Assembly: GCA_030167865.1 (NCBI GenBank)
Contig: JALAGF010003405.1
Location: forward strand, 62,001-91,148
DNA: 29,148 bases
Reading direction: 5' to 3'
From: Craspedostauros australis
Taxonomy: Eukaryota
Shown here: positions 6,769-22,506 of the stretch, piece by piece
Layout: each line of letters starts with the position of its first letter
Numbering within the stretch: position 1 is the stretch's first letter
The notes under the pieces: generated by a model
The model's database searches: none
The model's input: only the letters and a program-made list of their open reading frames with translations
Told to the model about the DNA's origin: nothing
Position numbers and translations under genes: made by a program

Positions 6769-9700
6769 CTACTCTGATCCATCCGTCAAAACGGAAACAT
6801 CATCCTCATCTTCCTCCACCATGCCGATGCCCAACGTTCCAGAAGCACGGCGGTTCTTTCCCTGTCCAGACCTGGAAATGATGGGCGTGATCGTTGAGAT
6901 CGTTCCCGTGTTACCTCCGATGGTGTCTTCGGATGAATTTCCCTTTCCGGGCAAGCCAACGGTCACCATCTGCATCTTACTTGCTGCCATCTCCTGCAAA
7001 GTCAAGAGCTTCTCGTGATCAAGGAACTCCATGCGGCGCTGCTTGATGTCGTCGACCTTGGCCATGCAACCCCAGGCGGTGTAGTACTTGACAGCCTCCA
7101 TGAAATAATCGCGGATCATCTCCTTCTTCCCCATTCGCAAGAAAGCTTCGCCGGCAAGCTCCGACGCGAGGGCCGCGTCGTGCAAGCAGCCGTTCTTCTT
7201 CGCGATGAGAATCGCGAGCTCGTACCTGTCCCTGATCTTGCTGGGATGGGCCTTCGTGACGGCCTTGACTTCGGCCTCCAGCAGGAAACTGCGATGCAAG
7301 CAGTTCGCTCCTTTGTCGCGCGCCAGCTTCTCCAGAGTCTCATCGGCCCGCCGGAGTTTCCTCAGGTACTTCCTCTTCTTGGTTGCTCTGTAGCATCCCG
7401 CAGCTGCCAGACCCGTGAACATGAGTCTGGAAACGAGCTGCGCGTACGAATGATCACCCTTGGCAACTCCCGCGAACCGATCGGCGATCTTGTCAGCCTG
7501 ATCGTAACGGAAGAAGTAGACAGCAAGTTGCAGACGCACCCAGTATCCGATCATCAAATCGACGACGTTATCGGAACCTTCCTTGCCGTCGGCGTCTACA
7601 CCGAAGTTGCACACATCGTCCCAGTCGGTGGTAAGCTCTCCTGTCATGTACCGCATCATCTTGAACTGCGAATCGGCAGCCCTTGCGATGTTCGCGATTT
7701 GGTATTGCTTGGCCTGATGAGCCAAGGCGTAGCCGTCATGGATGACGGATTGCAGAAGGTGACCGACCGTGTAGCACAGGGTGACGCGTGCGTGCCAGTT
7801 GATGCACGCCACCTCGACGTCACCGACTTGCATCGATGTCTCGTACCCTTGCTGCAGGTCCTCGAGCTGCTCTTCGTGCGGTTTGTCCCACGCGAAAGTG
7901 TACATGGAGGTGTGGAATGCCACGCGGCCTGCGATCACCTTGCCGTTGGTGATGTGGACGATCTTCTTGGACAGCATCGCCACCCTGCTGGCAGTCTCAT
8001 GGTCGTTCATGGTGTCCATCAGCATGCCGAACATGAAGACAGGGTACGCCGAATACTTGCACAGTCCACGTTTCCGGATGAGCTTGATCTGCTGGCCGAT
8101 GCAGACGAACCAAAGCAGCAGGCTCTTCGTGAAGTACGCCTGGACGGAGAGCTCGTTGAGGAGTTGCATCGTCATTTCGGTCGTGGGATCTTGGGTGATG
8201 GGGAGGTTAAGGAAGTCTTCATCCGACATCTTGCGGAAGAATGACTTGCAGGAACGCCACCCTTTCGCGGCGTGCAGTGCGAACCACCTGCGGGGGAAGA
8301 CCTTGAGGTCTTGCGTCACGTTGCAGATGAGGTGGAGCGCGGCCAGGTGCTGGTCCTGGCGACTCAGTGTCTTCGCCATGGCGACGTACGCCGGTAGCTT
8401 TTCCTCGAGAGTGTTGGCCCGATCCAGGACGATTTCGAAGAGGTCGCTGGCGACGCTGTAGTTGCCCAACGCTGCCTCCGTGCTGGCCCTCGTGTGATGC
8501 AGGTGGATGAAGAAGTCGTAGTTTTCGTCGCTCATTCGGTCGCGGACTTTCTGGAAGACACTGTGCGCCTTCGCCAGGTACATGGAGGCCGCCGTGAGCG
8601 CGCCCTTCGAGACGGACTTTTGACCGACCTCCAGGTTGAGGCGGGCGAGGAACCAATGGTCCTTGCTGGGGACGCAGTTGAGATGGTCCGCCGCGATGAA
8701 GAACATTGCATCGTCGACTGCTGCCGCGTTGCTGATTCTGGTGTCCTGGACGTACGAGTGTCGGAAGATCCCGAGCATGCTGTGGCCGATCTTGGTGCGG
8801 AGCTTGTTGCGGTACTCGCCGCACGGGATGGCGTTGTAGGATGCCTGCTGGATGAGGCAGTGCGCAAATCGATAGCTGGAGCCTCCGATGGTGTTACTCA
8901 GCAGTCCTTCCAGCACGGCTCGCTCCACAAACGGCGTGATGTCATCTTCGCATGCGTTCGCATCGCGCGAATCATCAACAGTATCAACAGCATCAGCTTG
9001 TCCACCCCAGCACATGATGTCTTCGTCGTATTCCTCCATGAGCGGCTTGGCGTCGTCCCAGATGGCCTGCAGCGTGGCAACTTCGAATTGAAACTGGATA
9101 TACGATGCCACCGTCAGAAGCTGTTGCAGCATCTTCGGTAACCGTCTCATCCTGGTGGCGACGAGCTCCTCGATGCTGCTGTCGATGGACAGCGATTCCA
9201 GATTCGCGCCGTCCGAGTTGCTGCTTGGATCCGAGGCCCACGTCCAGGAGTTACATACGCTGTCGAATACGATGTGCTGTTCTCGTTGCAGCTCTTCGAG
9301 GGCCTGGAATGTGTGGAAGGGGTTGCCGCGCGTCTTGCTGTGCAGCTTGACAGAAAGCGCCTGGATGGTCTTTGACGGGGCATCAAACATCGACGTCAAC
9401 CACTCGTTGACATCCGCCACGGTCAGGTTGTACAGCTTCACTTGCGACAGGGCGGGGTCGTATCCAGGCAATTGGCTGATCTCCTCCATCATGTGCAGCA
9501 CGGGGTTATCAGGCGGGAGGTTGAGCTTGTGCTGTTGAATGGGAGCGATGGTGTTGCTATGCGAGTCGATGCCATCTTCGCGAATGGTGCCGAAGAGGAT
9601 GAAGTTGGTCATGGAGAGATCCAGCAGAATGCGCTTGAGCAGAGTCAATGTTGCGGACGAAGCCCACTGCAGGTCATCGAGGAGGAGGATGATGGCTGGG

Positions 9701-11178
9701 GATTGCGGTGCTTCGGCTGGTGCCTGGTGCTGCTTGAGGTGATTGAGATCAATGCCGAGCTCGTTGGCGGCTTTGGCAGGCTCGTCTGGAATGGGCGGCG
9801 GCGACGAGATGGTCTTGATGAACTTTGTGAATAGGTACTGCACCCGCTTCCATGTGTCACCAGCATCGATGCTGGGATCTGCGCGATCCGAGCCCAGCTG
9901 TCTGCTGCGTCGCCTAACTGCTGCGTTCGTCGGCTGCGGCTCCATGTTGAGCGAGAACTCATCCGAGCTGTCCGTGGTTTCATCCAAGCACACCAGGCTC
10001 GAAAGAGAAGGGACGATCTGGACCAGCATGCGGATATCATCTTGCGACAGCTCGGACGCCAGCTTGGCTTGGAAGTACTCCAGGTCCCTCCGAGGGCCGT
10101 GCTCCAGCTCCCGCACGAAGCCGGAGATGGCCTGGGCCAACGCGACGTACGGATTGCTCATCCCATTGAACTCGTCGAGCTTGCCTCTGAGGATGTAGGC
10201 CCTCCTCTTGGCCCTTGTCGTCCCCTTGTCGGTGCCGCTGTCGATGGTTTCAAGTCTGCTGCTACTCCTGGGTTGCGTGGTGCGTGGCTCCTGCTGCAGC
10301 CTGGCTTTGAGGTTGGTGAGGAACTCTTCCAGGAGCCTGGACTTTCCCGTTCCGCTCACGCCCGACACAAACACAGCTGGGATGGGATGGCGGTGCGGGC
10401 TTTCGTCATTGTCTGCAGGGTTCGTCTGTGGCTGAATCGTCCTCTGGCTTCGTTGCTGCTGCTGCTGCTGTATCTGCTGCTGTTGTAACTGGTGCTGCTG
10501 CTGTAACTGATGCTGTTGTCTCTGCTGTATCTGTTGCAGCTGCTGTAGCTGCTGCCGTTGGTGCTGAAGCCGGTGTTGGAGTTGCAGATGCTGCCGCAGA
10601 AAGTGTCGTTGCTGTAGCTTCTGATACTGCTGCTGCCGCTCCTGCTGTGGCTGCGTGATGATGCGATCGTATGCATCGGAGAGCACCTTCATCTCGGCTG
10701 ACCGGCCGAACATGGCCTTGGGAAGGGTGCTGGTGGTGCGAGCGTCGGTGGCGGAAGCATCGGCTGGGCCTCTGGAGTTCGATCGACTCACGGGTGTTCC
10801 TGCATGCTCATGCTGCTGTTGCTCATGCTGCTGTTGCTCATGCTGCTGCGGCTGCTTTTCATTGGTATTCGTACGCGTATTTGTGCTGCCGCTGGTGCTG
10901 GTGCTGTGGCTGGTGCTCAAGGAGGATGCTGCGCTCATGGGCACGCTCATGGTGTCGCTGATCGTCGCTGCGTCCATCATCATCATGTGCGCTTTGGATT
11001 CAGTCTGCGGACATGCCTGGTGGGAATGTTCTGTCTGCTGGCTTCCTTCCTTGTTCCTTCCTCGCATTGCTGCATTGCCGTCTTGTTGTTGTTGTTGCTT
11101 CTGTTGTTGCTTCTGTTGTTGCTTCTGTTGCTTCTGTTCATGTTGTTGCTGTTGTTGCTGTTGCTGCTGTTGCTCCAT
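6769..11178 (-). CDS. STAND-class P-loop NTPase (AAA_16/COG3899-like) with C-terminal TPR-like helical region and N-terminal polyQ
   Basis: 1469-aa intronless ORF. Motifs: MFGRSAE, Walker A GVSGTGKS (10339-10362), GKLDE..PY, Walker B IILLLDDLQWA (~9661-9693), KTRGNPF (GxP), YRFAHCLIQQASY, and the C-terminal LASELAG...AVKYYTAWGCMAKV. These match the ATPase+TPR core of bacterial multi-domain sensor kinases. No kinase or HisKA domain is seen. Confidence 0.88.
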   Translation of the reverse strand: MEQQQQQQQQQQHEQKQQKQQQKQQQKQQQQQDGNAAMRGRNKEGSQQTEHSHQACPQTESKAHMMMMDAATISDTMSVPMSAASSLSTSHSTSTSGSTNTRTNTNEKQPQQHEQQQHEQQQHEHAGTPVSRSNSRGPADASATDARTTSTLPKAMFGRSAEMKVLSDAYDRIITQPQQERQQQYQKLQQRHFLRQHLQLQHRLQHQRQQLQQLQQIQQRQQHQLQQQHQLQQQQIQQQQQQRSQRTIQPQTNPADNDESPHRHPIPAVFVSGVSGTGKSRLLEEFLTNLKARLQQEPRTTQPRSSSRLETIDSGTDKGTTRAKRRAYILRGKLDEFNGMSNPYVALAQAISGFVRELEHGPRRDLEYFQAKLASELSQDDIRMLVQIVPSLSSLVCLDETTDSSDEFSLNMEPQPTNAAVRRRSRQLGSDRADPSIDAGDTWKRVQYLFTKFIKTISSPPPIPDEPAKAANELGIDLNHLKQHQAPAEAPQSPAIILLLDDLQWASSATLTLLKRILLDLSMTNFILFGTIREDGIDSHSNTIAPIQQHKLNLPPDNPVLHMMEEISQLPGYDPALSQVKLYNLTVADVNEWLTSMFDAPSKTIQALSVKLHSKTRGNPFHTFQALEELQREQHIVFDSVCNSWTWASDPSSNSDGANLESLSIDSSIEELVATRMRRLPKMLQQLLTVASYIQFQFEVATLQAIWDDAKPLMEEYDEDIMCWGGQADAVDTVDDSRDANACEDDITPFVERAVLEGLLSNTIGGSSYRFAHCLIQQASYNAIPCGEYRNKLRTKIGHSMLGIFRHSYVQDTRISNAAAVDDAMFFIAADHLNCVPSKDHWFLARLNLEVGQKSVSKGALTAASMYLAKAHSVFQKVRDRMSDENYDFFIHLHHTRASTEAALGNYSVASDLFEIVLDRANTLEEKLPAYVAMAKTLSRQDQHLAALHLICNVTQDLKVFPRRWFALHAAKGWRSCKSFFRKMSDEDFLNLPITQDPTTEMTMQLLNELSVQAYFTKSLLLWFVCIGQQIKLIRKRGLCKYSAYPVFMFGMLMDTMNDHETASRVAMLSKKIVHITNGKVIAGRVAFHTSMYTFAWDKPHEEQLEDLQQGYETSMQVGDVEVACINWHARVTLCYTVGHLLQSVIHDGYALAHQAKQYQIANIARAADSQFKMMRYMTGELTTDWDDVCNFGVDADGKEGSDNVVDLMIGYWVRLQLAVYFFRYDQADKIADRFAGVAKGDHSYAQLVSRLMFTGLAAAGCYRATKKRKYLRKLRRADETLEKLARDKGANCLHRSFLLEAEVKAVTKAHPSKIRDRYELAILIAKKNGCLHDAALASELAGEAFLRMGKKEMIRDYFMEAVKYYTAWGCMAKVDDIKQRRMEFLDHEKLLTLQEMAASKMQMVTVGLPGKGNSSEDTIGGNTGTISTITPIISRSGQGKNRRASGTLGIGMVEEDEDDVSVLTDGSE

Positions 11179-12846
11179 TGTCGCTCTTCTTGCCTTCTTG
11201 TCGTGCTTGCTGCGTTCCTTGTTGCGATTGTGGTGGCTGGGGAGAGCCTCCCAGATGTGCTGACCTGTCTACGACCTATTGGTACTCACGCACATGCGTC
11301 CATGTACGCGCACGTACGCGTATGTTCATACAGTACGGTACAGTGCGGCACGAGCACGAACTCCGAGTATGTATGGGACGTTACTCGCGCGGCCTCGCTC
11401 TGCTTGGCTGGGGGCACCAGTACCGCAAACTACGAATGGTACAATAGTTCGTGGGAGGAACACAGGAACAGAAAAGGCAAGGAAGGAGAGGGACGGTGCA
11501 GGGAGTGAAACGCTCTTTGCTTGTCCTCTCTCTGTCTTCTGCGATGGATTGTGTCGCGCGGTGGAGACGGCGACACACACACATAGACCGCGTTCTTCCC
11601 CATGATTTTCTCAACAAAAACAGGCAGTGTACCACAGCACACCGAGAAATACGAGCGTCCAGTTCTGCTTTTGTTGAACCAAGACGACACAACACACGCA
11701 GCACTCGCTGGCGCACCATGTCACGTCACGTCACGGATTAATGGGACCGCGACAACAGAGTGTGCCAATACAATTATGACATCGCGATAGATCTTGGAAA
11801 CTCGGCGACGCTCTCTGTCGCATGATAATTTATGGCAAAATGACTGTCGCGGAAGGCGCAATTCTCCAGTGATGCCCCAAGAGTCGGCCACGCCTCGACT
11901 TGCTCGCGTGCTGCGAACCATGACGGTGCTCTGGCCCATGACGAGTCCGAGGCAGTTCGCGTCTTGTTTGCAAAGAAACCTCCTCACAAATGTCACGGTT
12001 AGATGAGTGTCTTGGTGAGGAATAGGCCCCCCAAGTTGGGCGGAGACATTTGCGTCGGACATCCTTGTCAACAACTAGTCGGAAGTAGGTTGTGAACCCC
12101 TGGCGCGGAAGGAGGGCAGCGTTGCTCTCGTTGCTCCGTTCCCGATGCCGTTCGTCTTCCGTATCCAAGAAGCAAGAGGTGTGCCTCGAGTTCGTGCTAT
12201 TGATCGGTGAGCGAGAATTGGAGGAGGAGTGCGACAACAGTCCAACCACATGGGGAGCATCGTCTTGTGATCTCCAAGTGCACAAAGATTCTACTCGTAG
12301 TCGTATCCCGAAGACAAGAGTCCACAACTCCCACCATACCAGGCATAGACGAACCATACTGGTACAACTGAGAGTATCCGCAGAGAGAGAGAGAGAGAGA
12401 GATGTGAAGTCTGATCAGAGCTACGAACTCACCGAGCGCTCATGCACAGAGGCAAGTGGAAACAAGACATCCCACCCATGCAAACATCGTGATGTTGGAT
12501 GCAGGGTCACAGGGATGGAAAAGTGCTTCTGCGTGTCCATGAATGGAGATGTCTCACCTCTCTCGAACCCAGAATGTGGACACGTCGGCTTGTCCATTCT
12601 TTCGTCATGCCATCCGCGTCTGTCCGTCGCTACGGGAAAACGCCGCCCGGTTCTGGCGAATTGCTTCGCGCCTCCATCCGTCATGACATTCGCGGCTGCG
12701 TCCCCCACCCACAGGCGCTGCCTCCGCATGATGCCGCCACCAATCATTGCCCAATGATCGCGGCGCCAAAACGGAGAGAGTCAATGTCCTCCTCTCTGTG
12801 AGTGGACGGAGAGGGAACTGACACAACAACAACGAAGGCAGAGAAG

Positions 12847-13830
12847 ATGCTTGTGCCACTGCAACAGAAGCGGAACCTCATCACGTGCATGTATGCAACA
12901 ACAATAGCAACAACAATAGCAACAGCAGGAAGAAGAAGGAGGAGTTCGATCAACTGCGTCGCTTGCTTCGTCGCAATTGTAGCCGCGATCATCACCGCTC
13001 CCGCCTGCGTCCACGGTCTGCTGCCCTTGCGTTGCCTTCCAGCGCAGGTTCGATTCTCCGCGCTTTCTCGTGCGAGTACAGGTTTTGTGACAGCATCTGA
13101 CGCCAAGCCGCGTTGGACAACCGCAGTGGCGATGTCCACAACAGCAGGCGATGATCCCCTGACCAGCAGCGGACTGCCGGGTCCGTTGATCTTGGGATCG
13201 GCGTCGTTCACGCGCAAGCTCATCCTCAAGGAGATGGGGGTGCCATTCCAGATCATCAAACGTCCCATCGATGAGAAGGCGCTGGGCGATCGTTGCCAGG
13301 ATGCGCCGATGGATCTCGTGCTCACTCTGGCCAAGGCCAAGATGGATCATCTCATTTCCGAAATCCAGGCCGGCAATTGCGAGAAGGAGCTGCCGGATGG
13401 CGTTCCATCCTCGGCTGTCGTGCTCACCGGGGATCAGGTCGTGACGTGCGATGGCAAGATCCTGGAGAAGCCGGAAACTGTGGAGGAGGCCAAGCAATTC
13501 GTGTCATCGTACGGCAAGCATCCTCCGTCGACGGTGGGATCCTGCGTGCTGCACCATATCCCAAGCGGCATCCAGGTGTCAGGTGTGGATACGGCGACGA
13601 TACATTTCGTCGAGGCCATTCCGGAGGATTTGATCGATCGGTTGCTGAAGGAGGACGAGCCCATTCTGTCGTGCGCTGGCGGTTTGATGGTGGAGCATCC
13701 TTTCGTCAAGGAGCACATCGTGTCTATCGATGGAACGGAGGACAGCGTCATGGGCCTCAGCAAGGACTTGGTGCTCAAGTTGTTCGCAGACCTCAGGCAG
13801 AAGCTAGATGCGCAGGAGGAGGCTTCATGA
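12847..13830 (+). CDS. Maf family nucleoside-triphosphate pyrophosphatase, YceF (m7GTP)-like, with N-terminal extension; ATG candidates 12847 and 12889
   Basis: LILGSASFTRKLIL, IDEK, LAKAK, VLTGDQVV.CDGKILEKP, SCAGGLMVE and DSVMGL are Maf signature motifs. The DQ and CAG..(x)E residues are YceF-type rather than YhdE-type. A hydrophobic stretch CVACFVAIVAAIITAPACVHG precedes the domain. Confidence 0.9.
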   Translation: MLVPLQQKRNLITCMYATTIATTIATAGRRRRSSINCVACFVAIVAAIITAPACVHGLLPLRCLPAQVRFSALSRASTGFVTASDAKPRWTTAVAMSTTAGDDPLTSSGLPGPLILGSASFTRKLILKEMGVPFQIIKRPIDEKALGDRCQDAPMDLVLTLAKAKMDHLISEIQAGNCEKELPDGVPSSAVVLTGDQVVTCDGKILEKPETVEEAKQFVSSYGKHPPSTVGSCVLHHIPSGIQVSGVDTATIHFVEAIPEDLIDRLLKEDEPILSCAGGLMVEHPFVKEHIVSIDGTEDSVMGLSKDLVLKLFADLRQKLDAQEEAS

Positions 13831-15337: not shown

Positions 15338-16094
15338 CCTTCGATCTTTGACACGTTCGGTTGCTGTTCTGCTTCCCTACCGGTTTGTGGTCGACCCGCT
15401 TGACCACTTCTCTTCGTTACCAAACGCGAAGCAGCCACCATGAACGGCCTCTCGGAGTTTCTTGGGTGGGGATGGGTGGGGCGAGCGCGACAAGCAAAGC
15501 CAGAGCTCTTGCAACACCTGCAGACCTATCGTTCTCATGTTAGATCACGCCAACTCTGAAGCGTCAGAATAATGTAACATAATAGAATACTACTCTGCTC
15601 ATTGCGCTACTTGAGATCATCACGTTCAGCATCCATGATGTTCCGACAGGTCCCGACAGGCTCATCATTGCATCCCTTCATCGCGAGGTGGGGTGCACGT
15701 GGTAAGTCGGGTTGGATTGACCGTCGACGTTCATGTCTTCGGTCGCTGCTAAAGATGAAAGAACTGGAAATAAGGTGAGGTAAGGTAAGGCATGGTGCCA
15801 GTAGGCAAGGATTGGGACCAACATCGCGATCATCACCACTACCAATCCTCCACATGCTCTACTCAATCTTCAAGCATGCGTGCATTCAAAATGTGAAGGA
15901 CTGCTGCAAACGGGAGGCACCACGATGTTGGTGCGCTCGCACAACCGCGATGGTATGGGACGCCTGTGTCGTTTGCAGCGCTGCATTGGCCGCGTCTGTC
16001 TTCCACTACCACTTGCAAGCAAGCAATCTTGCAGGCCTGTTACAGGCCAAGTCAGCTTTGCTTCCGTTTCGATGCGATCGACTCGGGACGGTGC

Positions 16095-17342
16095 TTAGAG
16101 AGCCAGCATGGAGGTGGCGTCGAGGCCTTCCATGGCTCCCATGTCACAACCTTCGAAGTCGTTGAGGGCATCCAGGAGGAACTCGCCAAGTTCGCACTCG
16201 TCCAGTTCGGACGCCGTGTCCGATCCGGAAGTCTCCGAAACCGCCGGGGTGGCGGTCTCTTCCGCAGGGGCGTCGCGATGTCCAGCATCGTCGTCGCTCT
16301 CTTTGGCCCTGCCTTGGACATTGCTGTTCGATGCGGCCAGGCCGGTGTTTTGCGTCGGTAGATACAACACCTCGTGATCATCAGCACCAGTGATCTTCGC
16401 TGCTGGAAGGTTTTTGGTGAAATTAGTGGGTTTGACAGCGCCGCTGCGGACGTGCGTGATCGAGAGTGTCGATCAGCGTGCCGAGCATGTTCGGCATGAG
16501 CCAGATGCATCGTCGCTGGGACGATGAATCCGTCCATGCGTCTGCGCGTCAAGTGTACCCGAGAGTCGGAAATATGAGACTCAAGCTATAGGTCGATTGA
16601 TCATTTCCGTTATATGCTGATGGTGATTCGAGGTGAGATCGGGGACGCAACGACCGGCTGTCGGCATCGAAGAGTATGTCATGACAGGGGACGGGGGAGG
16701 GGACACGGTCTTGACGTGGAGGAGGCCGTTGGTGAGTTGCGTGGCGGATGGGGAAGCTGGGCGGTATCCCTGGGTGTTCATGGTGGTGGCGGCGGCTGTG
16801 GCACCAGCGGCAGAGGAGGCAGTCGCGGTGATGTTCAGGTTGGCGATGTCCTGACGCAGGTTCTTGGGTGTGAAGGAGTCGTTGGTGCTGCTGTTGGCTG
16901 CGGCGGCTTCGAGCTCCACAATGCGCTTGAGGGCGGCGGCGTACTTGGACTGGAGGACATCGACTTCGCCCTCCAGCTCCGTGACACGCTCTCGGTTGCG
17001 CTTGCGCGAGGCCGCGGCGCTCTCGCGATTGCGCACGCGTCGGGCCTCCTTGCGCCACTCGCGCAGCTCCTCGCGGGTCATCGGGACGCCTGGATGGTAC
17101 CTGGACTGCTTCTTGATCCCGGTGGGGTGCGGCTTGGGCATGGAGCCTGGTTCGCCTTCCGCCGAAGCGTCGTCATCGCTGTTGGTGCGGGAGCGCTTGG
17201 ACGACACCGATTCGGCGTCGAGGTCCAGGTCCGCGTCGGCTTCCGCATCGGAGTCCAGCTCGCGCTGTCTCTTGAGCTGCTGGATGCGGTGCTTGCGAGC
17301 CGCGGCCGCTTCCGCGGATGATGCGATGCTTTGTTGGGCCAT
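16095..17342 (-). CDS. bZIP transcription factor, HAC1/XBP1-like candidate: unspliced form 17342-16581 (253 aa); putative spliced form 17342-16586 + 16402-16095 (354 aa) with an acidic C-terminal tail
   Basis: Basic region and zipper: KKQSRYHPGVPMTREELREWRKEARRVRNRESAAASRKRNRERVTELEGEVDVLQSKYAAALKRIVELE. The downstream same-frame segment AKITGADDHEVLYLP...SELDECELGEFLLDALNDFEGCDMGAMEGLDATSMLAL* is acidic and hydrophobic. Confidence 0.88.
16403..16585 (-). other. Putative non-spliceosomal (IRE1-type) 183-nt intron in the bZIP mRNA
   Basis: Begins CTTGAG (no GT) and contains the TGA stop. It ends within the stem-loop CTTC-CAG|CAGC-GAAG. The flanking exons are complementary (CACCTCG/CGAGGTG, CATCAGCA/TGCTGATG, TGATC/GATCA). 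Removal restores the frame (ATA G|CA GCG AAG = I A A K). Confidence 0.65.
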
Positions 17343-17413
17343 CGTGGAGGCTGTGATGGGTGGAACCGATGGATGAGGGGGAAGGATTGCACTCGAAGAG
17401 CGGAGCAGTAGCG

Positions 17414-17446
17414 TTGGTTTGGTTTGGTTTGGTTTGGTTTGGTTTG
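17414..17446 (+). repeat. (TTGGT/GGTTT)n pentanucleotide microsatellite in the bZIP 5' region
   Basis: ttggtttggtttggtttggtttggtttggtttg, read directly. Confidence 0.85.
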
Positions 17447-17920
17447 TGATGGCTTGGGTTTGACAGAACAAGTCGAAGAGTTTTGTGAGCACTTTCAACA
17501 CGGAGGCTCCGAAAGGTATCCATTGCCCCCACACAGAACTGCACGCGCTTGCACACACCTGACAACGAAGAACTAACTACTCACGACAAACGGTAGCGCT
17601 GCAGAGAACAGCACGAAGCACAAAACACAAACCGCCCCCAACACGAAACCCAACAAAGAGACACGAACCAAATCGCACACACAAAAGCACGAGGACGGAA
17701 CAAAAGAGAAGCACCAACCACTCGGAATGGCACAGAAAAACCCCACGTTTCGGAAGCTGTCGCAATTCTTTGACACCAGATTCTGCGCTGGCGGCAAAAC
17801 ACGACTCCAACAACTCAGAACCGAAAAAAGGACACGCGGCAATTTTGGCAGTTGTATTCAAAGGAGTCGAATTGAGGCGGCGTCTGATGAGCGTCCGCCG
17901 AAGCGGTTGCAAATGAATCT

Positions 17921-17963: not shown

Positions 17964-18457
17964 TGTAGAAAATGTACCACGGTTTACGGCAGGTCGATTT
18001 CTCCCTATCGTTTCAAAAGATACGATCCTGACACTGCGCGAACATCAGTGTCGGTTGGAAGAAGGGAAGCCTACCGATGGGGATACAATGGACCAATCGC
18101 CACCTTGTTGGCGTCAACAGGGAAGACAAGAAGGAACGCTTTGACACACAAGGGGAAGCAACAACGAGGAACCAACACGGAAACAGAATGCGTTTTGTGA
18201 GGAACGGAACAAAAGAGTACCATCGATCGTGATGGCCACAAGACAAGGGCTTCTCCTCTCTTGTCGTCTTGTCGTCTTGTCCTCTTGTGTTCCGTTGTTC
18301 CGTTGTTCCATTGCTCCATTGTCGCCTCTCTTGGAGTCACTCTGCTCCATGCCCGAGAGTGTCGCCAGTGCATGTGAATGCGACCGTACGTGCAGTTGCA
18401 ACATCATCACCAACATCGACAACAACTGCAAGAAGAAGAAGAAGCAGAAGAACGACG

Positions 18458-19735
18458 ATGACTACTGGTACCACGGCGCCTGCTGCGAACAATGATCCTG
18501 CTGCGGCGAGGAGACGGAGGAAGGAGATCATCCAAGCGCAGAGATCGATGGAGGACGCTGCCGGTGAGGCCGGAGGTCGCAAGAAGCGAGGCAATGTAAC
18601 CCATTTCCAGCCAGGTTCATTGCTGGCTCCGAAATTGACGAAGGTGTTGGCGGAGACCGTCGCGAACAACGCGCAGCAGCCTCCAGTGGCAATAGCGACC
18701 GTTGCCAAGCAGGCGGGGCCGCCTCCGCCCGCAGCAGTCCTGCAGCCGATCCAACCGAAGGCACCCAGTGCGCCTGCTGTCGCACCGCCAGTTGGCAGCG
18801 TGATGGTTGCAGGTTCCGCGCCTGTCCAAGAAGCTGCTGTTGCAACCGCTCAGCCGGTCATCGAGCCATGCACGAGACCGATAACAGTGCCAATCGCAGT
18901 GGCGCAACCGGCAGCGCCACAGGTGGCTGCGGCACCAACAACGACGGCAGTGACGACAACGCCTGTGTTGGCAACGGCGGGAGCATGCGGTGTTGCGTCA
19001 CTGCCGGCGGGTGCAGCAGCTGCAGCGCATGCAGCACAGGCGATGCCTGCATCGCATTCGGTTGGATACGCCAATGTGGGAGCGAAGGTGGGAGCAACAG
19101 CAGCATCAACTGGCGCGCAAGCCGGCGTTCAGATGCAACCGCATGTCCATGTCCATGCATCCGCAGCAACCAACGCTGCAATCGCCGCACCGCCCACCGC
19201 AAACGCTCGAGGCGACGTAGCAACCGCGAAGACAGATGAGTCCAGGCCACCGAAGAAGCGCAAGATCGTGAATGCACCAGAAATGAATGACGAAGCTCCA
19301 GAACCTGTGGCCGCCGCTGTCGCCACTGCTGCTGTCGTGACCGAAATAGCAACCACGGCGGAAGCTGCGCTAGATATGGAGATGGTTCCTGGTGTGGGAG
19401 GCGATGAAGGATTTGCTGTGGGCCCGGGTGCAGCCGCTGGCGTGGCATCACGGACGGGTCCCAAGAAGACGCAGGTTCGGTACGATCCCGACGTGCCGAT
19501 GAACAAGGAGCAGCTGGCAGCCTGGAGGAGGGAGGCGCGCAGAGTGCGCAACAGGGAAAGTGCTGCGGCCAGCCGGCAAAGGATACGAGACAGAATATCG
19601 GAGCTTCAGGACGAGGCCGATGGCTGGAAGCTCAAGTACATTCAAGCCATGCAACGGCTGCAAGCTTTGGAGCGGGCCGTCGGCCAGGCTGACGATGGAA
19701 CGACGAATGCTTGTCAGCCGACTGGTCTGATATGA
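18458..19735 (+). CDS. bZIP transcription factor with long Ala/Pro/Thr-rich N-terminus and C-terminal bZIP (start ATG uncertain, 18458 or 18548)
   Basis: KKTQVRYDPDVPMNKEQLAAWRREARRVRNRESAAASRQRIRDRISELQDEADGWKLKY; NLS-like PPKKRK; paralogous to the minus-strand bZIP. Confidence 0.88.
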   Translation: MTTGTTAPAANNDPAAARRRRKEIIQAQRSMEDAAGEAGGRKKRGNVTHFQPGSLLAPKLTKVLAETVANNAQQPPVAIATVAKQAGPPPPAAVLQPIQPKAPSAPAVAPPVGSVMVAGSAPVQEAAVATAQPVIEPCTRPITVPIAVAQPAAPQVAAAPTTTAVTTTPVLATAGACGVASLPAGAAAAAHAAQAMPASHSVGYANVGAKVGATAASTGAQAGVQMQPHVHVHASAATNAAIAAPPTANARGDVATAKTDESRPPKKRKIVNAPEMNDEAPEPVAAAVATAAVVTEIATTAEAALDMEMVPGVGGDEGFAVGPGAAAGVASRTGPKKTQVRYDPDVPMNKEQLAAWRREARRVRNRESAAASRQRIRDRISELQDEADGWKLKYIQAMQRLQALERAVGQADDGTTNACQPTGLI

Positions 19736-21209: not shown

Positions 21210-21738
21210 GGGATAAACTTGAAGAACAATCAGAATGGATTGGCAGAGGCACCATGCCATTGCGTGCATGTCCAGAATGATATCATCAACCTCAAACAAT
21301 GAGTGGAGCACACAATGAATACGTTTTGGCAGTCCTCTCTAGTACAGTAAAGTAGAATCAGCCTTGCAGTTGCTGCATCCGAGACCCTTGTTGCGAGTAC
21401 AGTCGTTGTGCCAGGAGCAATCACTACCTCCTTCCTCCGAAGCTGTGGCTTCGGTACGAGTTTGGTCAGCCGATTTGGACAGGACATCGAACGTGGTTGT
21501 TGTGGGTCACGAATGAAAAAATGAGTTCGATCACGGGAGTGACGTTTATCGTTCCTTTCCGTGTTCCTGCATTTGTGATGCAACCCACCAACACAGCAAC
21601 ATGGACAGGAACAGATCACTGCGGCCATCTCTTTCCAGAGTCAACCGTACCCATCCATCTATACGCTTGGGCATCTCACCCAAGCAACCACAGTCTCTTG
21701 TACAAGGACAACACGTGCCAAACATCATCCGCTCCGAC

Positions 21739-22506
21739 ATGTCCAGGATGAACAGGATGAACAGGACCTTCCCTTCTCTCAACACCATTGTTGTGGCATC
21801 GTTGTGGCTGCTGTGCATTGGAAGTGCATCGATATCCATTCCATTCGTTGAATCATTCGCACCATCACCTGGCAGTTACCATCACCATCGATTATTCACA
21901 ACAGCAACAACAGCAACAACAGCAACAACAGCAACAACAGCAACAACAACAATCGCAGGACTTCAATCATATTCGTCGTCTTGTACTGCACTGCAAGAGC
22001 AGCAGCAACCGCAAGACGGAGAGCAGGAGCAACCAAGCGATGCCAATGACCATGACCATGACAATGGCAACCAGCAGAATCCGACGGAAGATAAGGAACC
22101 CATCGTCCAGTCCACCGTGACGATGGACGACGGCGGATCCGACCTCACGGATCGCTTCAAGTACAAGGTTCAGGCCCTGATGGGCAACTTCAATCCCACG
22201 GGTGAAGACGACGAACGCCAGGATGGCAACATCCTCAACGCCATGATGAAATTCCCAGTGCGGTACACCTTCAACATCGTCGGACGCACGGAGGGCGACG
22301 ATGCCATCCAGGAAATCTACGTCGAGGATGTCAAACGGACCGTGTTAGAAACCTCCGGCGATTCCGATGGTCTGATGTGTCATGTCACGCCACGCGGCAA
22401 GAACTTCGTCAAGCTGCAATGCGAAGTCACGGTGCACAGCTCGCAGATGATCAATCAGATCTACGAGGATCTGGACAAACTCGAGCGAACGAAGATGAGG
22501 TTTTGA
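21739..22506 (+). CDS. Plastid-targeted DUF493/YbeD-like (ACT-like fold) protein; ATG candidates 21739, 21748, 21757
   Basis: Signal peptide IVVASLWLLCIGSASISIPFVES followed by FAP (ASAFAP-type cleavage motif) and a Thr/Ser-rich transit region. The C-terminal MKFPVRYTFNIVG...TPRGKNFVKLQCEVTVHSSQMINQIYEDLDKLERTKMRF resembles YbeD (FP..F.YKVMG...KGNY.SVSI...YEEL....VRM). Confidence 0.8.
   Translation: MSRMNRMNRTFPSLNTIVVASLWLLCIGSASISIPFVESFAPSPGSYHHHRLFTTATTATTATTATTATTTIAGLQSYSSSCTALQEQQQPQDGEQEQPSDANDHDHDNGNQQNPTEDKEPIVQSTVTMDDGGSDLTDRFKYKVQALMGNFNPTGEDDERQDGNILNAMMKFPVRYTFNIVGRTEGDDAIQEIYVEDVKRTVLETSGDSDGLMCHVTPRGKNFVKLQCEVTVHSSQMINQIYEDLDKLERTKMRF

Follow-up and report, generated by a model that had tools for sequence, protein, structure and literature searches.

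How the reading frame of a bZIP gene is completed is the question raised by the minus strand of the window, by which we mean the whole stretch of DNA that was analysed, 29,148 nucleotides (nt) of the Craspedostauros australis contig JALAGF010003405.1 (positions 62,001 to 91,148 of the forward strand; assembly GCA_030167865.1). The open reading frame (ORF) of this gene ends in CGA CCT ATA GCT TGA, that is, RPIA followed by a stop, giving a short protein of 253 residues. When the same frame is read on beyond the TGA, a second stop is met at 16475-16473 and is followed by ...PAAKITGADD...ELDECELGEFLLDALNDF...LAL and a final stop. An earlier note on this DNA had described this arrangement of ORF end, second stop and in-frame acidic/hydrophobic tail, all of which is present in the sequence, and had proposed that the intervening stretch is an unconventional intron of the HAC1/XBP1 kind. 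From the sequence analysis reported here we consider it probable, at about 0.8, that the gene encodes the unfolded protein response (UPR) bZIP factor of a diatom, a counterpart of HAC1, XBP1 and bZIP60, and that its mRNA is a substrate for splicing of the IRE1 type, which is non-spliceosomal.

The predicted junction joins G16586 to C16402, with removal of 16585-16403, and connects the two coding segments as ...NRPIA-AKITGADD.... The joined RNA is predicted to read ...CCTATAG^CAGCGAAG... (the sign ^ marks a cut or join throughout). A GC repeat at both borders allows the junction to be drawn in three equivalent registers (GC..CA, CT..AG and TT..GC), none of which is GT-AG, in agreement with the earlier claim that RPIA and AKIT can be joined with no GT donor. 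The spliced product would have approximately 354 residues, compared with 253 for the unspliced form. The tail gained in this way is presumed to be an activation segment. Two of its residues, F74 and L75, are invariant in an alignment of 32 tail sequences, and the tail motif is kept as ELGEFLxD(A/T)(L/F).

Relatives were sought among proteins and among metagenome contigs. Homologues of the short ORF numbered 348 at E up to 0.001 among 8000 scored candidates, and the best 120 were listed. The named homologues among the matches listed are from pennate diatoms (Tryblionella/Nitzschia, Nitzschia inconspicua, Cylindrotheca fusiformis, Licmophora paradoxa and metagenome-assembled genomes, MAGs, of Bacillariaceae), and most of the homologues listed are 190-250 residues long. 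Twelve were taken in full. Seven of these are short forms that stop 0-2 residues past the segment ...QHIMxMISRPIA, and the other five extend 4-144 residues past it, three of the five being the long forms P0018, P0026 and P0045. The scan of metagenome contigs produced 393 matching stretches, 126 of them encoding a relative, from which 80 loci were kept. Both splice sites were assigned in 74 loci and in the window, corresponding to 69 unique sequences, and counts out of 69 given below refer to this set. L009 (premature stop), L036 (spliced), L049 and L050 (5' site CAG^UAG, missed by the G^C rule), L076 and L079 were omitted from it, and the 5' assignment is doubtful in four distant loci (L054, L058, L068 and L078).

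Three sequences from relatives contain the predicted join. P0018, from the culture transcriptome MMETSP0744, is a continuous protein across the predicted junction (...HIIDMISRPIAAKIPPGAD...CALGEFLLDTF, with MISRPIAAKIPPGAD at the junction itself). The contig L036 has a single 415-codon ORF that runs through ...IIRPIAAKISPGANEK..., and when it was compared with the unspliced L019 using blastn, positions 31-797 aligned with 34-818 and 796-1380 with 917-1525; the predicted 100 nt are exactly absent, with a 2-nt GC overlap. The third sequence, P0172, is a protein from a 958-nt Logan contig and reads ...QHVTEMISRQAAKITGADT...LGSFLLDALSDFDP..., with MISRQAAKITGADT at the junction. It matches the bZIP ORF of the window at 53% over 115 residues, and exon 2 of the window aligns from its first residue with P0172 residues 200-275. 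A word search with residues 226-357 of P0018 found no sequence other than P0018, the tail having diverged too far for words to seed a match. When a profile of 32 exon-2 translations was used instead, against 1.84 billion representatives, 69 proteins were found, of which 67 were tail-only ORFs of 30-168 residues and two were long, namely P0059 (an NCBI MAG gene model) and P0172. Unspliced forms are far commoner in the retrieved set, making up 79 of the 80 loci. Runs of 9-10 A were found at the end of three of the 80 contigs, a hint, and no more than that, of intron-containing polyadenylated RNA among them.

A number of NCBI gene models for orthologues in Nitzschia inconspicua and Bacillariaceae MAGs also join the bZIP part to the tail, at slightly shifted places: P0045/P0189 (RPIASKIPPGAD; RPIASKI), P0026 (RPIACILPGAD) and P0059 (...LPLSAKILPGAD). 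The shifts suggest that annotation pipelines, faced with a non-canonical intron, fitted an approximate one in its place. P0045, P0026 and P0059 were treated as predictions and were not used as evidence for the junction.

The reading frames of the relatives were examined with the same junction rule. The exon-2 frame set by the G^C-G^C join is the longest in 66 of the 69 unique sequences, with a median length of 123 codons versus 12 and 8 for the other two frames; in the three exceptions, the window among them, a second frame is open by chance. This exon-2 frame is closed by a stop within the intron, at a median of 16 nt ahead of the cut, in 62/69 sequences, and no ATG lies inside 30 nt of its start in 57/69, which leaves splicing as the only evident route to the tail. 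The short ORF stops 2-23 nt past the 5' cut in 66/69. Intron length ranges from 56 to 183 nt, and division by three leaves 0 in 21 loci, 1 in 25 and 2 in 23. Double stop-codon read-through was considered as another way to the tail and set aside, as it would have to pass two in-frame stops in the window, and in 48/69 relatives the tail is in another frame. A further frame of 177 codons (16052-16585, minus strand) is open in the window through the 3' part of the intron and exon 2, overlapping the conserved tail frame. G+C richness probably accounts for it; the corresponding frame in relatives is short, with a median of 12 codons.

Both predicted cuts fall within the terminal loops of hairpins. 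At the 3' site the window has a 7-nt loop of the form C-N-G^C-N-G-N on a stem, as in the IRE1 consensus, made up of CUUC (16409-16406), the loop (16405-16399) and GAAG (16398-16395). This hairpin, which the earlier note had recognised, is found in the centroid fold of a 286-nt stretch as well as in the minimum free energy (MFE) folds. The pattern alone is not significant in a single window (1 match compared with 0.21 expected, and at least one match in 17 of 100 shuffles), and the case therefore rests on its conservation in relatives. A hairpin with this loop and a stem of at least 3 bp is present in 77 of the 79 unspliced related loci, 42-162 nt past the stop of the short ORF. The two unspliced exceptions are near variants, L076 with the 6-nt loop CGCAGU and L079 with UAGCAGU, and the 80th locus, L036, is spliced and hence intronless. 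The loops in the 69 unique sequences are CAGCAGC (41), CAGCAGU (16), CCGCAGC (7), CCGCAGU (2), CUGCCGC (2) and CAGCCGC (1), so that variation is confined to the three positions left free in the published IRE1 consensus, a restriction that is not by construction. The stems are CUUC/GAAG in 66, CUUC/GGAG in two and UUUC/GAAG in one. The final seven bases of the intron, though non-coding, are conserved to the same degree as the exon.

At the 5' site, the MFE fold of the window has the outer and inner stems with the cut at the apex that the earlier note had drawn. The inner stem pairs GAC (16594-16592) with GUC (16580-16578), and the closing pair C16591-G16582 bounds an 8-nt loop, UAUAG^CUU (16590-16583), with the predicted cut at G16586^C16585. 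A consensus C-N-G^C-N-G-N loop of 7 nt on a stem of at least 3 bp occupies this site in 22/69 unique loci, and the stems of this type differ by compensatory changes (GACCAA/UUGGUC in L012, GCUCAA/UUGAGU in L037, GCACAA/UUGUGU in L010 and GAC/GUC in L003-L007). The remaining 5' loops are three bases shorter in the alignment and consist of 8 nt over a GAC/GUC stem, with C-G as the closing pair. Their cut contexts are UUG^CUU (31), UAG^CUU (4, including the window), CAG^CUU (3), AUG^CAU (2) and a few others, and joined sequences occur in relatives with a non-consensus 5' loop. The outer stem is GAUC/GAUC in most loci and is formed by other pairings in several, such as CGGAAAUG/UAUUUCCG in the window, with the architecture unchanged. 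Comparison of orthologues, which the earlier note had put forward as a check, thus finds the loops as well as the tail conserved.

The two hairpins form part of a larger fold. The folding energy of the 286-nt stretch has a z score of -4.55 (equalled by 0/200 shuffles) and that of a 391-nt stretch -4.56 (0/100). The MFE fold of the window consists of four parts: an interrupted exon-exon stem, the 5' hairpin, a branched intron core and the 3' hairpin. By inspection of the alignment, one central hairpin takes the place of the branched core in the shorter introns of relatives. All the stems and loops of the earlier note lie in the sequence at the coordinates it gave. The MFE fold contains two of its exon pairings, at 16635-29/16374-68 and at 16622-16/16385-79, but UGAUC (16603-599) and GAUCA (16395-91), which are complementary, are engaged there in the two hairpins. 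Exon 1 and exon 2 are bridged by at least 5 pairs, and typically by 17-36, in the single-sequence MFE folds of 66/69 loci. Compared with shuffles, the flanks form a duplex whose energy has a median z of -4.0, with 60/69 below -2. A scan of 16200-16800 on both strands against Rfam, at E up to 1, matched no family. The bulge-helix-bulge of introns cut by the tRNA splicing endonuclease, a 4-bp helix with a 3-nt bulge on each strand, is not seen by inspection, the cuts being in the terminal loops of two separate hairpins.

The sequences of the exon-exon stem differ greatly among lineages. Co-variation was tested on an alignment of 35 sequences with a structure of 17 exon-exon pairs and the 3' hairpin, using 500 shuffles for comparison. 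Paired cells made up 81.3% compared with 71.2% in shuffles, cells with double changes numbered 70 compared with 29.3, and the covariation score was 0.221 compared with 0.099; none of the 500 shuffles reached the observed value in any of the three. When the partner strand was slid by 1-3 columns, pairing fell to 31-50%. The tested structure was derived from the same 35 sequences and is somewhat favoured for this reason, making the slide control the safer comparison. The covariation that the earlier note proposed to look for is therefore found in this anchored test, which beats shuffles and slides alike, but not in the RNAalifold analysis described below.

These features can be set beside those of characterised substrates. 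In the accessible part of PMC4687415, XBP1 RNA is described as carrying the consensus C(C/U)G^CAGC at each border, within 7-mer loops on two short exon-intron arms, and its central exon-exon stem extends into a long interrupted stem that holds the exons for ligation. Twin loops are common to HAC1 and bZIP60, the second plant loop being 8 nt (excerpt of PMC3216516), and human IRE1alpha requires CUGCAG in a stem-loop (excerpt of PMC2952871). The element in the window is read as an IRE1 substrate because its architecture is that described for XBP1, with twin loops shared with HAC1 and bZIP60.

The following course of events is proposed. The primary polyadenylated mRNA would retain the 183-nt insert (16585-16403) and be translated into the 253-residue bZIP protein. 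Approximately 50 nt of exon 1 would pair with approximately 55 nt of exon 2, and this stem would set both hairpins side by side. Under endoplasmic reticulum (ER) stress, the RNase of IRE1 would cut after G16586 and G16403, the exon-exon stem would keep the two halves together and a tRNA-type ligase would join them. The joined mRNA would add the acidic tail of 101 residues, which may make the factor an activator. A more far-reaching interpretation, which we offer tentatively, is that diatom IRE1 might read the architecture of the RNA over the sequence of the loop, with a co-evolving exon-exon stem of 40-70 bp setting a degenerate loop beside a perfect one, or that a second nuclease might make the 5' cut. 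In addition, around 20 codons on each side of the intron would be locked in antisense co-evolution, because the exon-exon stem lies wholly in coding sequence.

Table 1. Features of the bZIP gene and of the predicted splicing element, with positions counted from the first letter of the window (CDS, coding sequence)
Feature	Position	Strand	Remarks
Exon 1 CDS	16586..17342	-	Starts with ATG (17342-17340); its last base, G16586, opens the Ala codon split by the cut
bZIP domain	16908..17063	-	Residues 94-145; Pfam bZIP_1 E 8.1e-9, bZIP_2 E 3.7e-5
Upstream consensus-type hairpin, cga[CAG^CCGG]tcg	16651..16663	-	From the hairpin scan; cut would be after G16658
Exon-exon stem ('zipper'), 5' strand	16616..16668	-	MFE; inside the last ~25 codons of the short ORF
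5' splice-site hairpin	16567..16609	-	MFE; outer stem CGGAAAUG (16609-16602) with UAUUUCCG (16574-16567)
TGA stop of the unspliced ORF	16583-16581	-	2 nt past the 5' cut, within the 5' hairpin
Predicted non-spliceosomal intron, CT..AG	16403..16585	-	183 nt; two stops in the bZIP frame
Branched intron core	16428..16560	-	MFE; three internal hairpins
Branch-point-like motif CCACTAAT	16422..16429	-	Upstream of the 3' hairpin
3' splice-site hairpin, cuuc[CAG^CAGC]gaag	16395..16409	-	Predicted cut G16403^C16402
Exon 2 CDS, (A)AKITGADD...LAL	16098..16402	-	101 codons past the shared Ala codon; stop TAA at 16097-16095
Exon-exon stem, 3' strand	16330..16385	-	MFE; inside the first ~24 codons of exon 2
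Acidic/hydrophobic motif ELDECELGEFLLDALNDF	16155..16208	-	Presumed activation motif; also in the tails of related loci

Several observations weigh against the IRE1 reading. The bZIP domain appears to have no specific sequence kinship to XBP1, HAC1 or bZIP60, and a PDB sequence search with the bZIP protein returned only weak, generic bZIP matches (CREB, Jun and Fos; E 0.02-0.07). As the earlier note had cautioned, the 5' loop of the window is off-consensus, keeping only G-1 and C+1; C-3 and G+3 are missing there and likewise in 47/69 unique loci, mostly those with UUG^CUU. The 3' hairpin is invariant and so offers no co-variation of its own, and it is closed in just 26/69 single-sequence MFE folds. 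RNAalifold run on the full MAFFT alignment of 35 sequences recovers only this invariant hairpin, because variation in intron length breaks the alignment. The constancy of the 5' G^C and of loop positions 1, 3, 4 and 6 in the set of 69 is partly by construction, through the selection pattern, and 77/79 is the fair figure. A consensus hairpin lying upstream in the same phase (cut after G16658) is a possible alternative 5' site. The junction anticipated by the earlier note was found exactly as predicted in P0018, L036 and P0172, but these joined sequences are from relatives only and none was seen from the organism of the window. Finally, it is from likeness of motifs that we infer the involvement of IRE1 and of an ER stress trigger, and a ligase such as RtcB or Trl1 and an activator function for the tail are likewise presumed.

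The alternative that survives best retains the same intron and junction and changes the enzyme or the occasion: a nuclease other than IRE1 would make the cuts, or the splice would be constitutive or developmental rather than a switch operated by ER stress. We regard this as unlikely. It draws on the derivation of enzyme and trigger from motif likeness and on the finding of joined sequences in relatives of the type whose 5' loops, 47 in all, are without C-3 and G+3. However, the 3' loop varies only where the IRE1 consensus is free, the 5' loop conforms to the consensus in 22/69, and two arms with an exon stem are the architecture of XBP1 (accessible part of PMC4687415). A constitutive splice would also not be expected to leave 79/80 loci unspliced or 67/69 profile matches with the tail only.

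Less probable again is decay of the orthologous 5' site in this species, with either the upstream loop being used in its place or splicing having been lost. The upstream hairpin is 72 nt before the orthologous 5' site and in the same codon phase, and a cut after G16658 combined with the 3' site would excise 255 nt in frame. That the 5' loop of the window is non-consensus and that its intron, at 183 nt, is the longest of the set would both suit such a history. Yet the bases of the upstream hairpin are paired within the exon-exon stem in the 391-nt fold and not looped out, and the site is non-orthologous. Chance alone yields about one CNG^CNG loop on a stem of at least 3 bp in every 2 kb (the two strands of the window have 27), a cut at this one would remove QHITEMINRPIA, the conserved end of the family, and the tail ORF and hairpins are intact in the window.

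A spliceosomal intron with unusual splice sites is improbable, although the earlier note had pointed to a resemblance between the 3' end and a spliceosomal acceptor. The intron of the window does end in the pyrimidine-rich CCUUCCAG, with CCACTAAT 20 nt upstream, and 58/69 introns end in AG. However, when the ends of all 69 were tabulated (CT..AG 39, CA..AG 14, CA..CG 7, CC..AG 5, CT..TG 2, CC..CG 1 and CT..CG 1), none was found to have GT, GC or AT at the 5' end in any equivalent register. The earlier note had held that a constitutive junction at a GT or GC donor would speak against its proposal; a GT/GC..AG pair yielding the same product is available in 0/69 unique loci, the window included. 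Moreover, 11/69 introns end in CG or TG, and the conserved last seven bases of the intron are one arm and a half-loop of a hairpin that is completed by the exon. Motifs like CCACTAAT are also seen between the central intron hairpin and the 3' hairpin in L001, L008, L010, L014, L023, L027, L030 and L072. CTAAY occurs in just 15/69 unique loci and TAAT in 53/69, and the motif often provides the stop that closes the exon-2 frame. With CTAAY in so few loci, CCACTAAT was rejected as a general branch point, and the resemblance to an acceptor is weakened accordingly.

The weakest alternative does without splicing: the joined sequences would have arisen when reverse transcription or assembly skipped over a strong stem, and the tail would be an ORF that is either independent or dead. 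A long stem with a short repeat at both sites, here the exon-exon stem with its 2-nt GC repeat, is a context where template switching occurs, and just three joined sequences were found, but such skips fail to explain why the tail frame obeys the junction rule in 66/69 when intron length covers all residues modulo 3, why that frame is start-less and closed just upstream, and why the tail motif is conserved. The logic of the frames and the ends of the introns rule out the spliceosomal and artefactual explanations for practical purposes.

Further observations were made on the gene and its surroundings. The segment QHIMxMISRPIA, the last 12 residues of the short protein (16584-16620 in the window, minus strand), is the best-conserved part beyond the bZIP domain, and its Ile codon is nearly always ATA. 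This conservation may reflect constraint on the RNA, through the stem and the hairpin, on the peptide, which could for instance act in stalling or targeting like XBP1u, or on the two together. A (CAAAC)n microsatellite lies at 17405-17457 (minus strand), in the presumed 5' leader of the bZIP gene. Contigs from a sequencing run of uncertain kind span 15950-16855 without a joint, and also 16827-17404, with neither joints nor loose ends reported, and are neutral on expression and splicing. Among the neighbouring long ORFs there are matches to the AAA_16 ATPase domain (6772-11268, minus strand; E 3.3e-17), the Maf-like domain (12802-13827, plus strand; E 5.4e-30) and the DUF493 domain (21517-22503, plus strand; E 3.1e-10), and nine further long ORFs of the window scanned against Pfam gave no match.

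A second bZIP gene (18233-19735, plus strand) is arranged head-to-head with the first; its Pfam bZIP_1 match (E 1.3e-5) is slightly under the curated cut-off. The ORF ends in ...TTNACQPTGLI and a stop, and the NAC codons lie within a hairpin, GAC[GAAUGCUU]GUC (19702-19715), that resembles the 8-nt 5' splice-site hairpin of the family. This gene was rejected as a further substrate, the hairpin scan having given no 3' partner hairpin downstream within the window.

Splicing of a bZIP mRNA driven by IRE1 is the oldest branch of the UPR, with a substrate known in fungi, animals, land plants and Chlamydomonas. Diatoms rank among the major primary producers, and they serve as hosts in which secreted proteins, membrane proteins and lipids are made. 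No IRE1 substrate was found to be named for diatoms or other stramenopiles in the full-text literature that was searched, a scope outside which subscription journals and supplements fell. The words diatom, stramenopile and alga are absent from a cross-kingdom comparison (PMC4891664), and CrIRE1-CrbZIP1 of Chlamydomonas is the sole case cited in the accessible part of a 2026 microalgal review (PMC13545648). If the IRE1 reading is right, the long-missing stress-response switch of diatoms would have been identified. The defined splice junction would provide a one-tube read-out of ER stress by reverse-transcription PCR (RT-PCR), applicable to cultures and to metatranscriptomes, and a handle for engineering secretion capacity. 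Because consensus and non-consensus 5' loops occur naturally on a common scaffold in this family, the question of how IRE1 recognises its sites would also become directly testable.

Among the known systems, XBP1, which is processed by IRE1alpha and RTCB, resembles the element of the window in being a bZIP mRNA with two short arms and a central exon-exon stem (accessible part of PMC4687415). Splicing leads to a longer protein in XBP1, which gains an activation domain (excerpt of PMC3216516), as it would in the predicted product of the window. The XBP1 intron is 26 nt and always frame-shifting, whereas the diatom introns are 56-183 nt and a multiple of three in 21/69, the window included; where the intron is in frame, the block is made by stops and not by a frame shift. 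Because the short diatom ORF, unlike that of XBP1, comes to its stop within the 5' hairpin, its protein lacks a long C-terminal region of the XBP1u type. The window also differs from XBP1 in its non-consensus 5' loop of 8 nt, and kinship beyond generic bZIP similarity was not found in the PDB search.

Yeast HAC1, which depends on Ire1 and Trl1, shares with the element predicted in the window a long non-spliceosomal intron (252 nt in HAC1; excerpt of PMC3216516) bounded by two stem-loops, the HAC1 loops being 7 nt. The spliced form of HAC1 gains a C-terminal segment needed for activity, and the diatom spliced form would gain the tail. In HAC1 the intron base-pairs with the 5' untranslated region and thereby prevents translation; the short ORF of the diatom, by contrast, looks translatable, and its conservation extends up to the final residue. 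Plant bZIP60 and Chlamydomonas CrbZIP1 are the counterparts with twin stem-loops in photosynthetic eukaryotes, and CrbZIP1 is spliced by CrIRE1 (accessible part of PMC13545648). Splicing of bZIP60 removes 23 nt and deletes a transmembrane domain, whereas the diatom short form has, by inspection, no evident membrane anchor. The plant loops keep three conserved bases, of which the 5' loop of the window has lost two. Compared with all of these, the diatom element is a variant with long introns, in-frame introns in a third of the loci, a degenerate 5' loop of 8 nt and a stem of great length between two coding segments.

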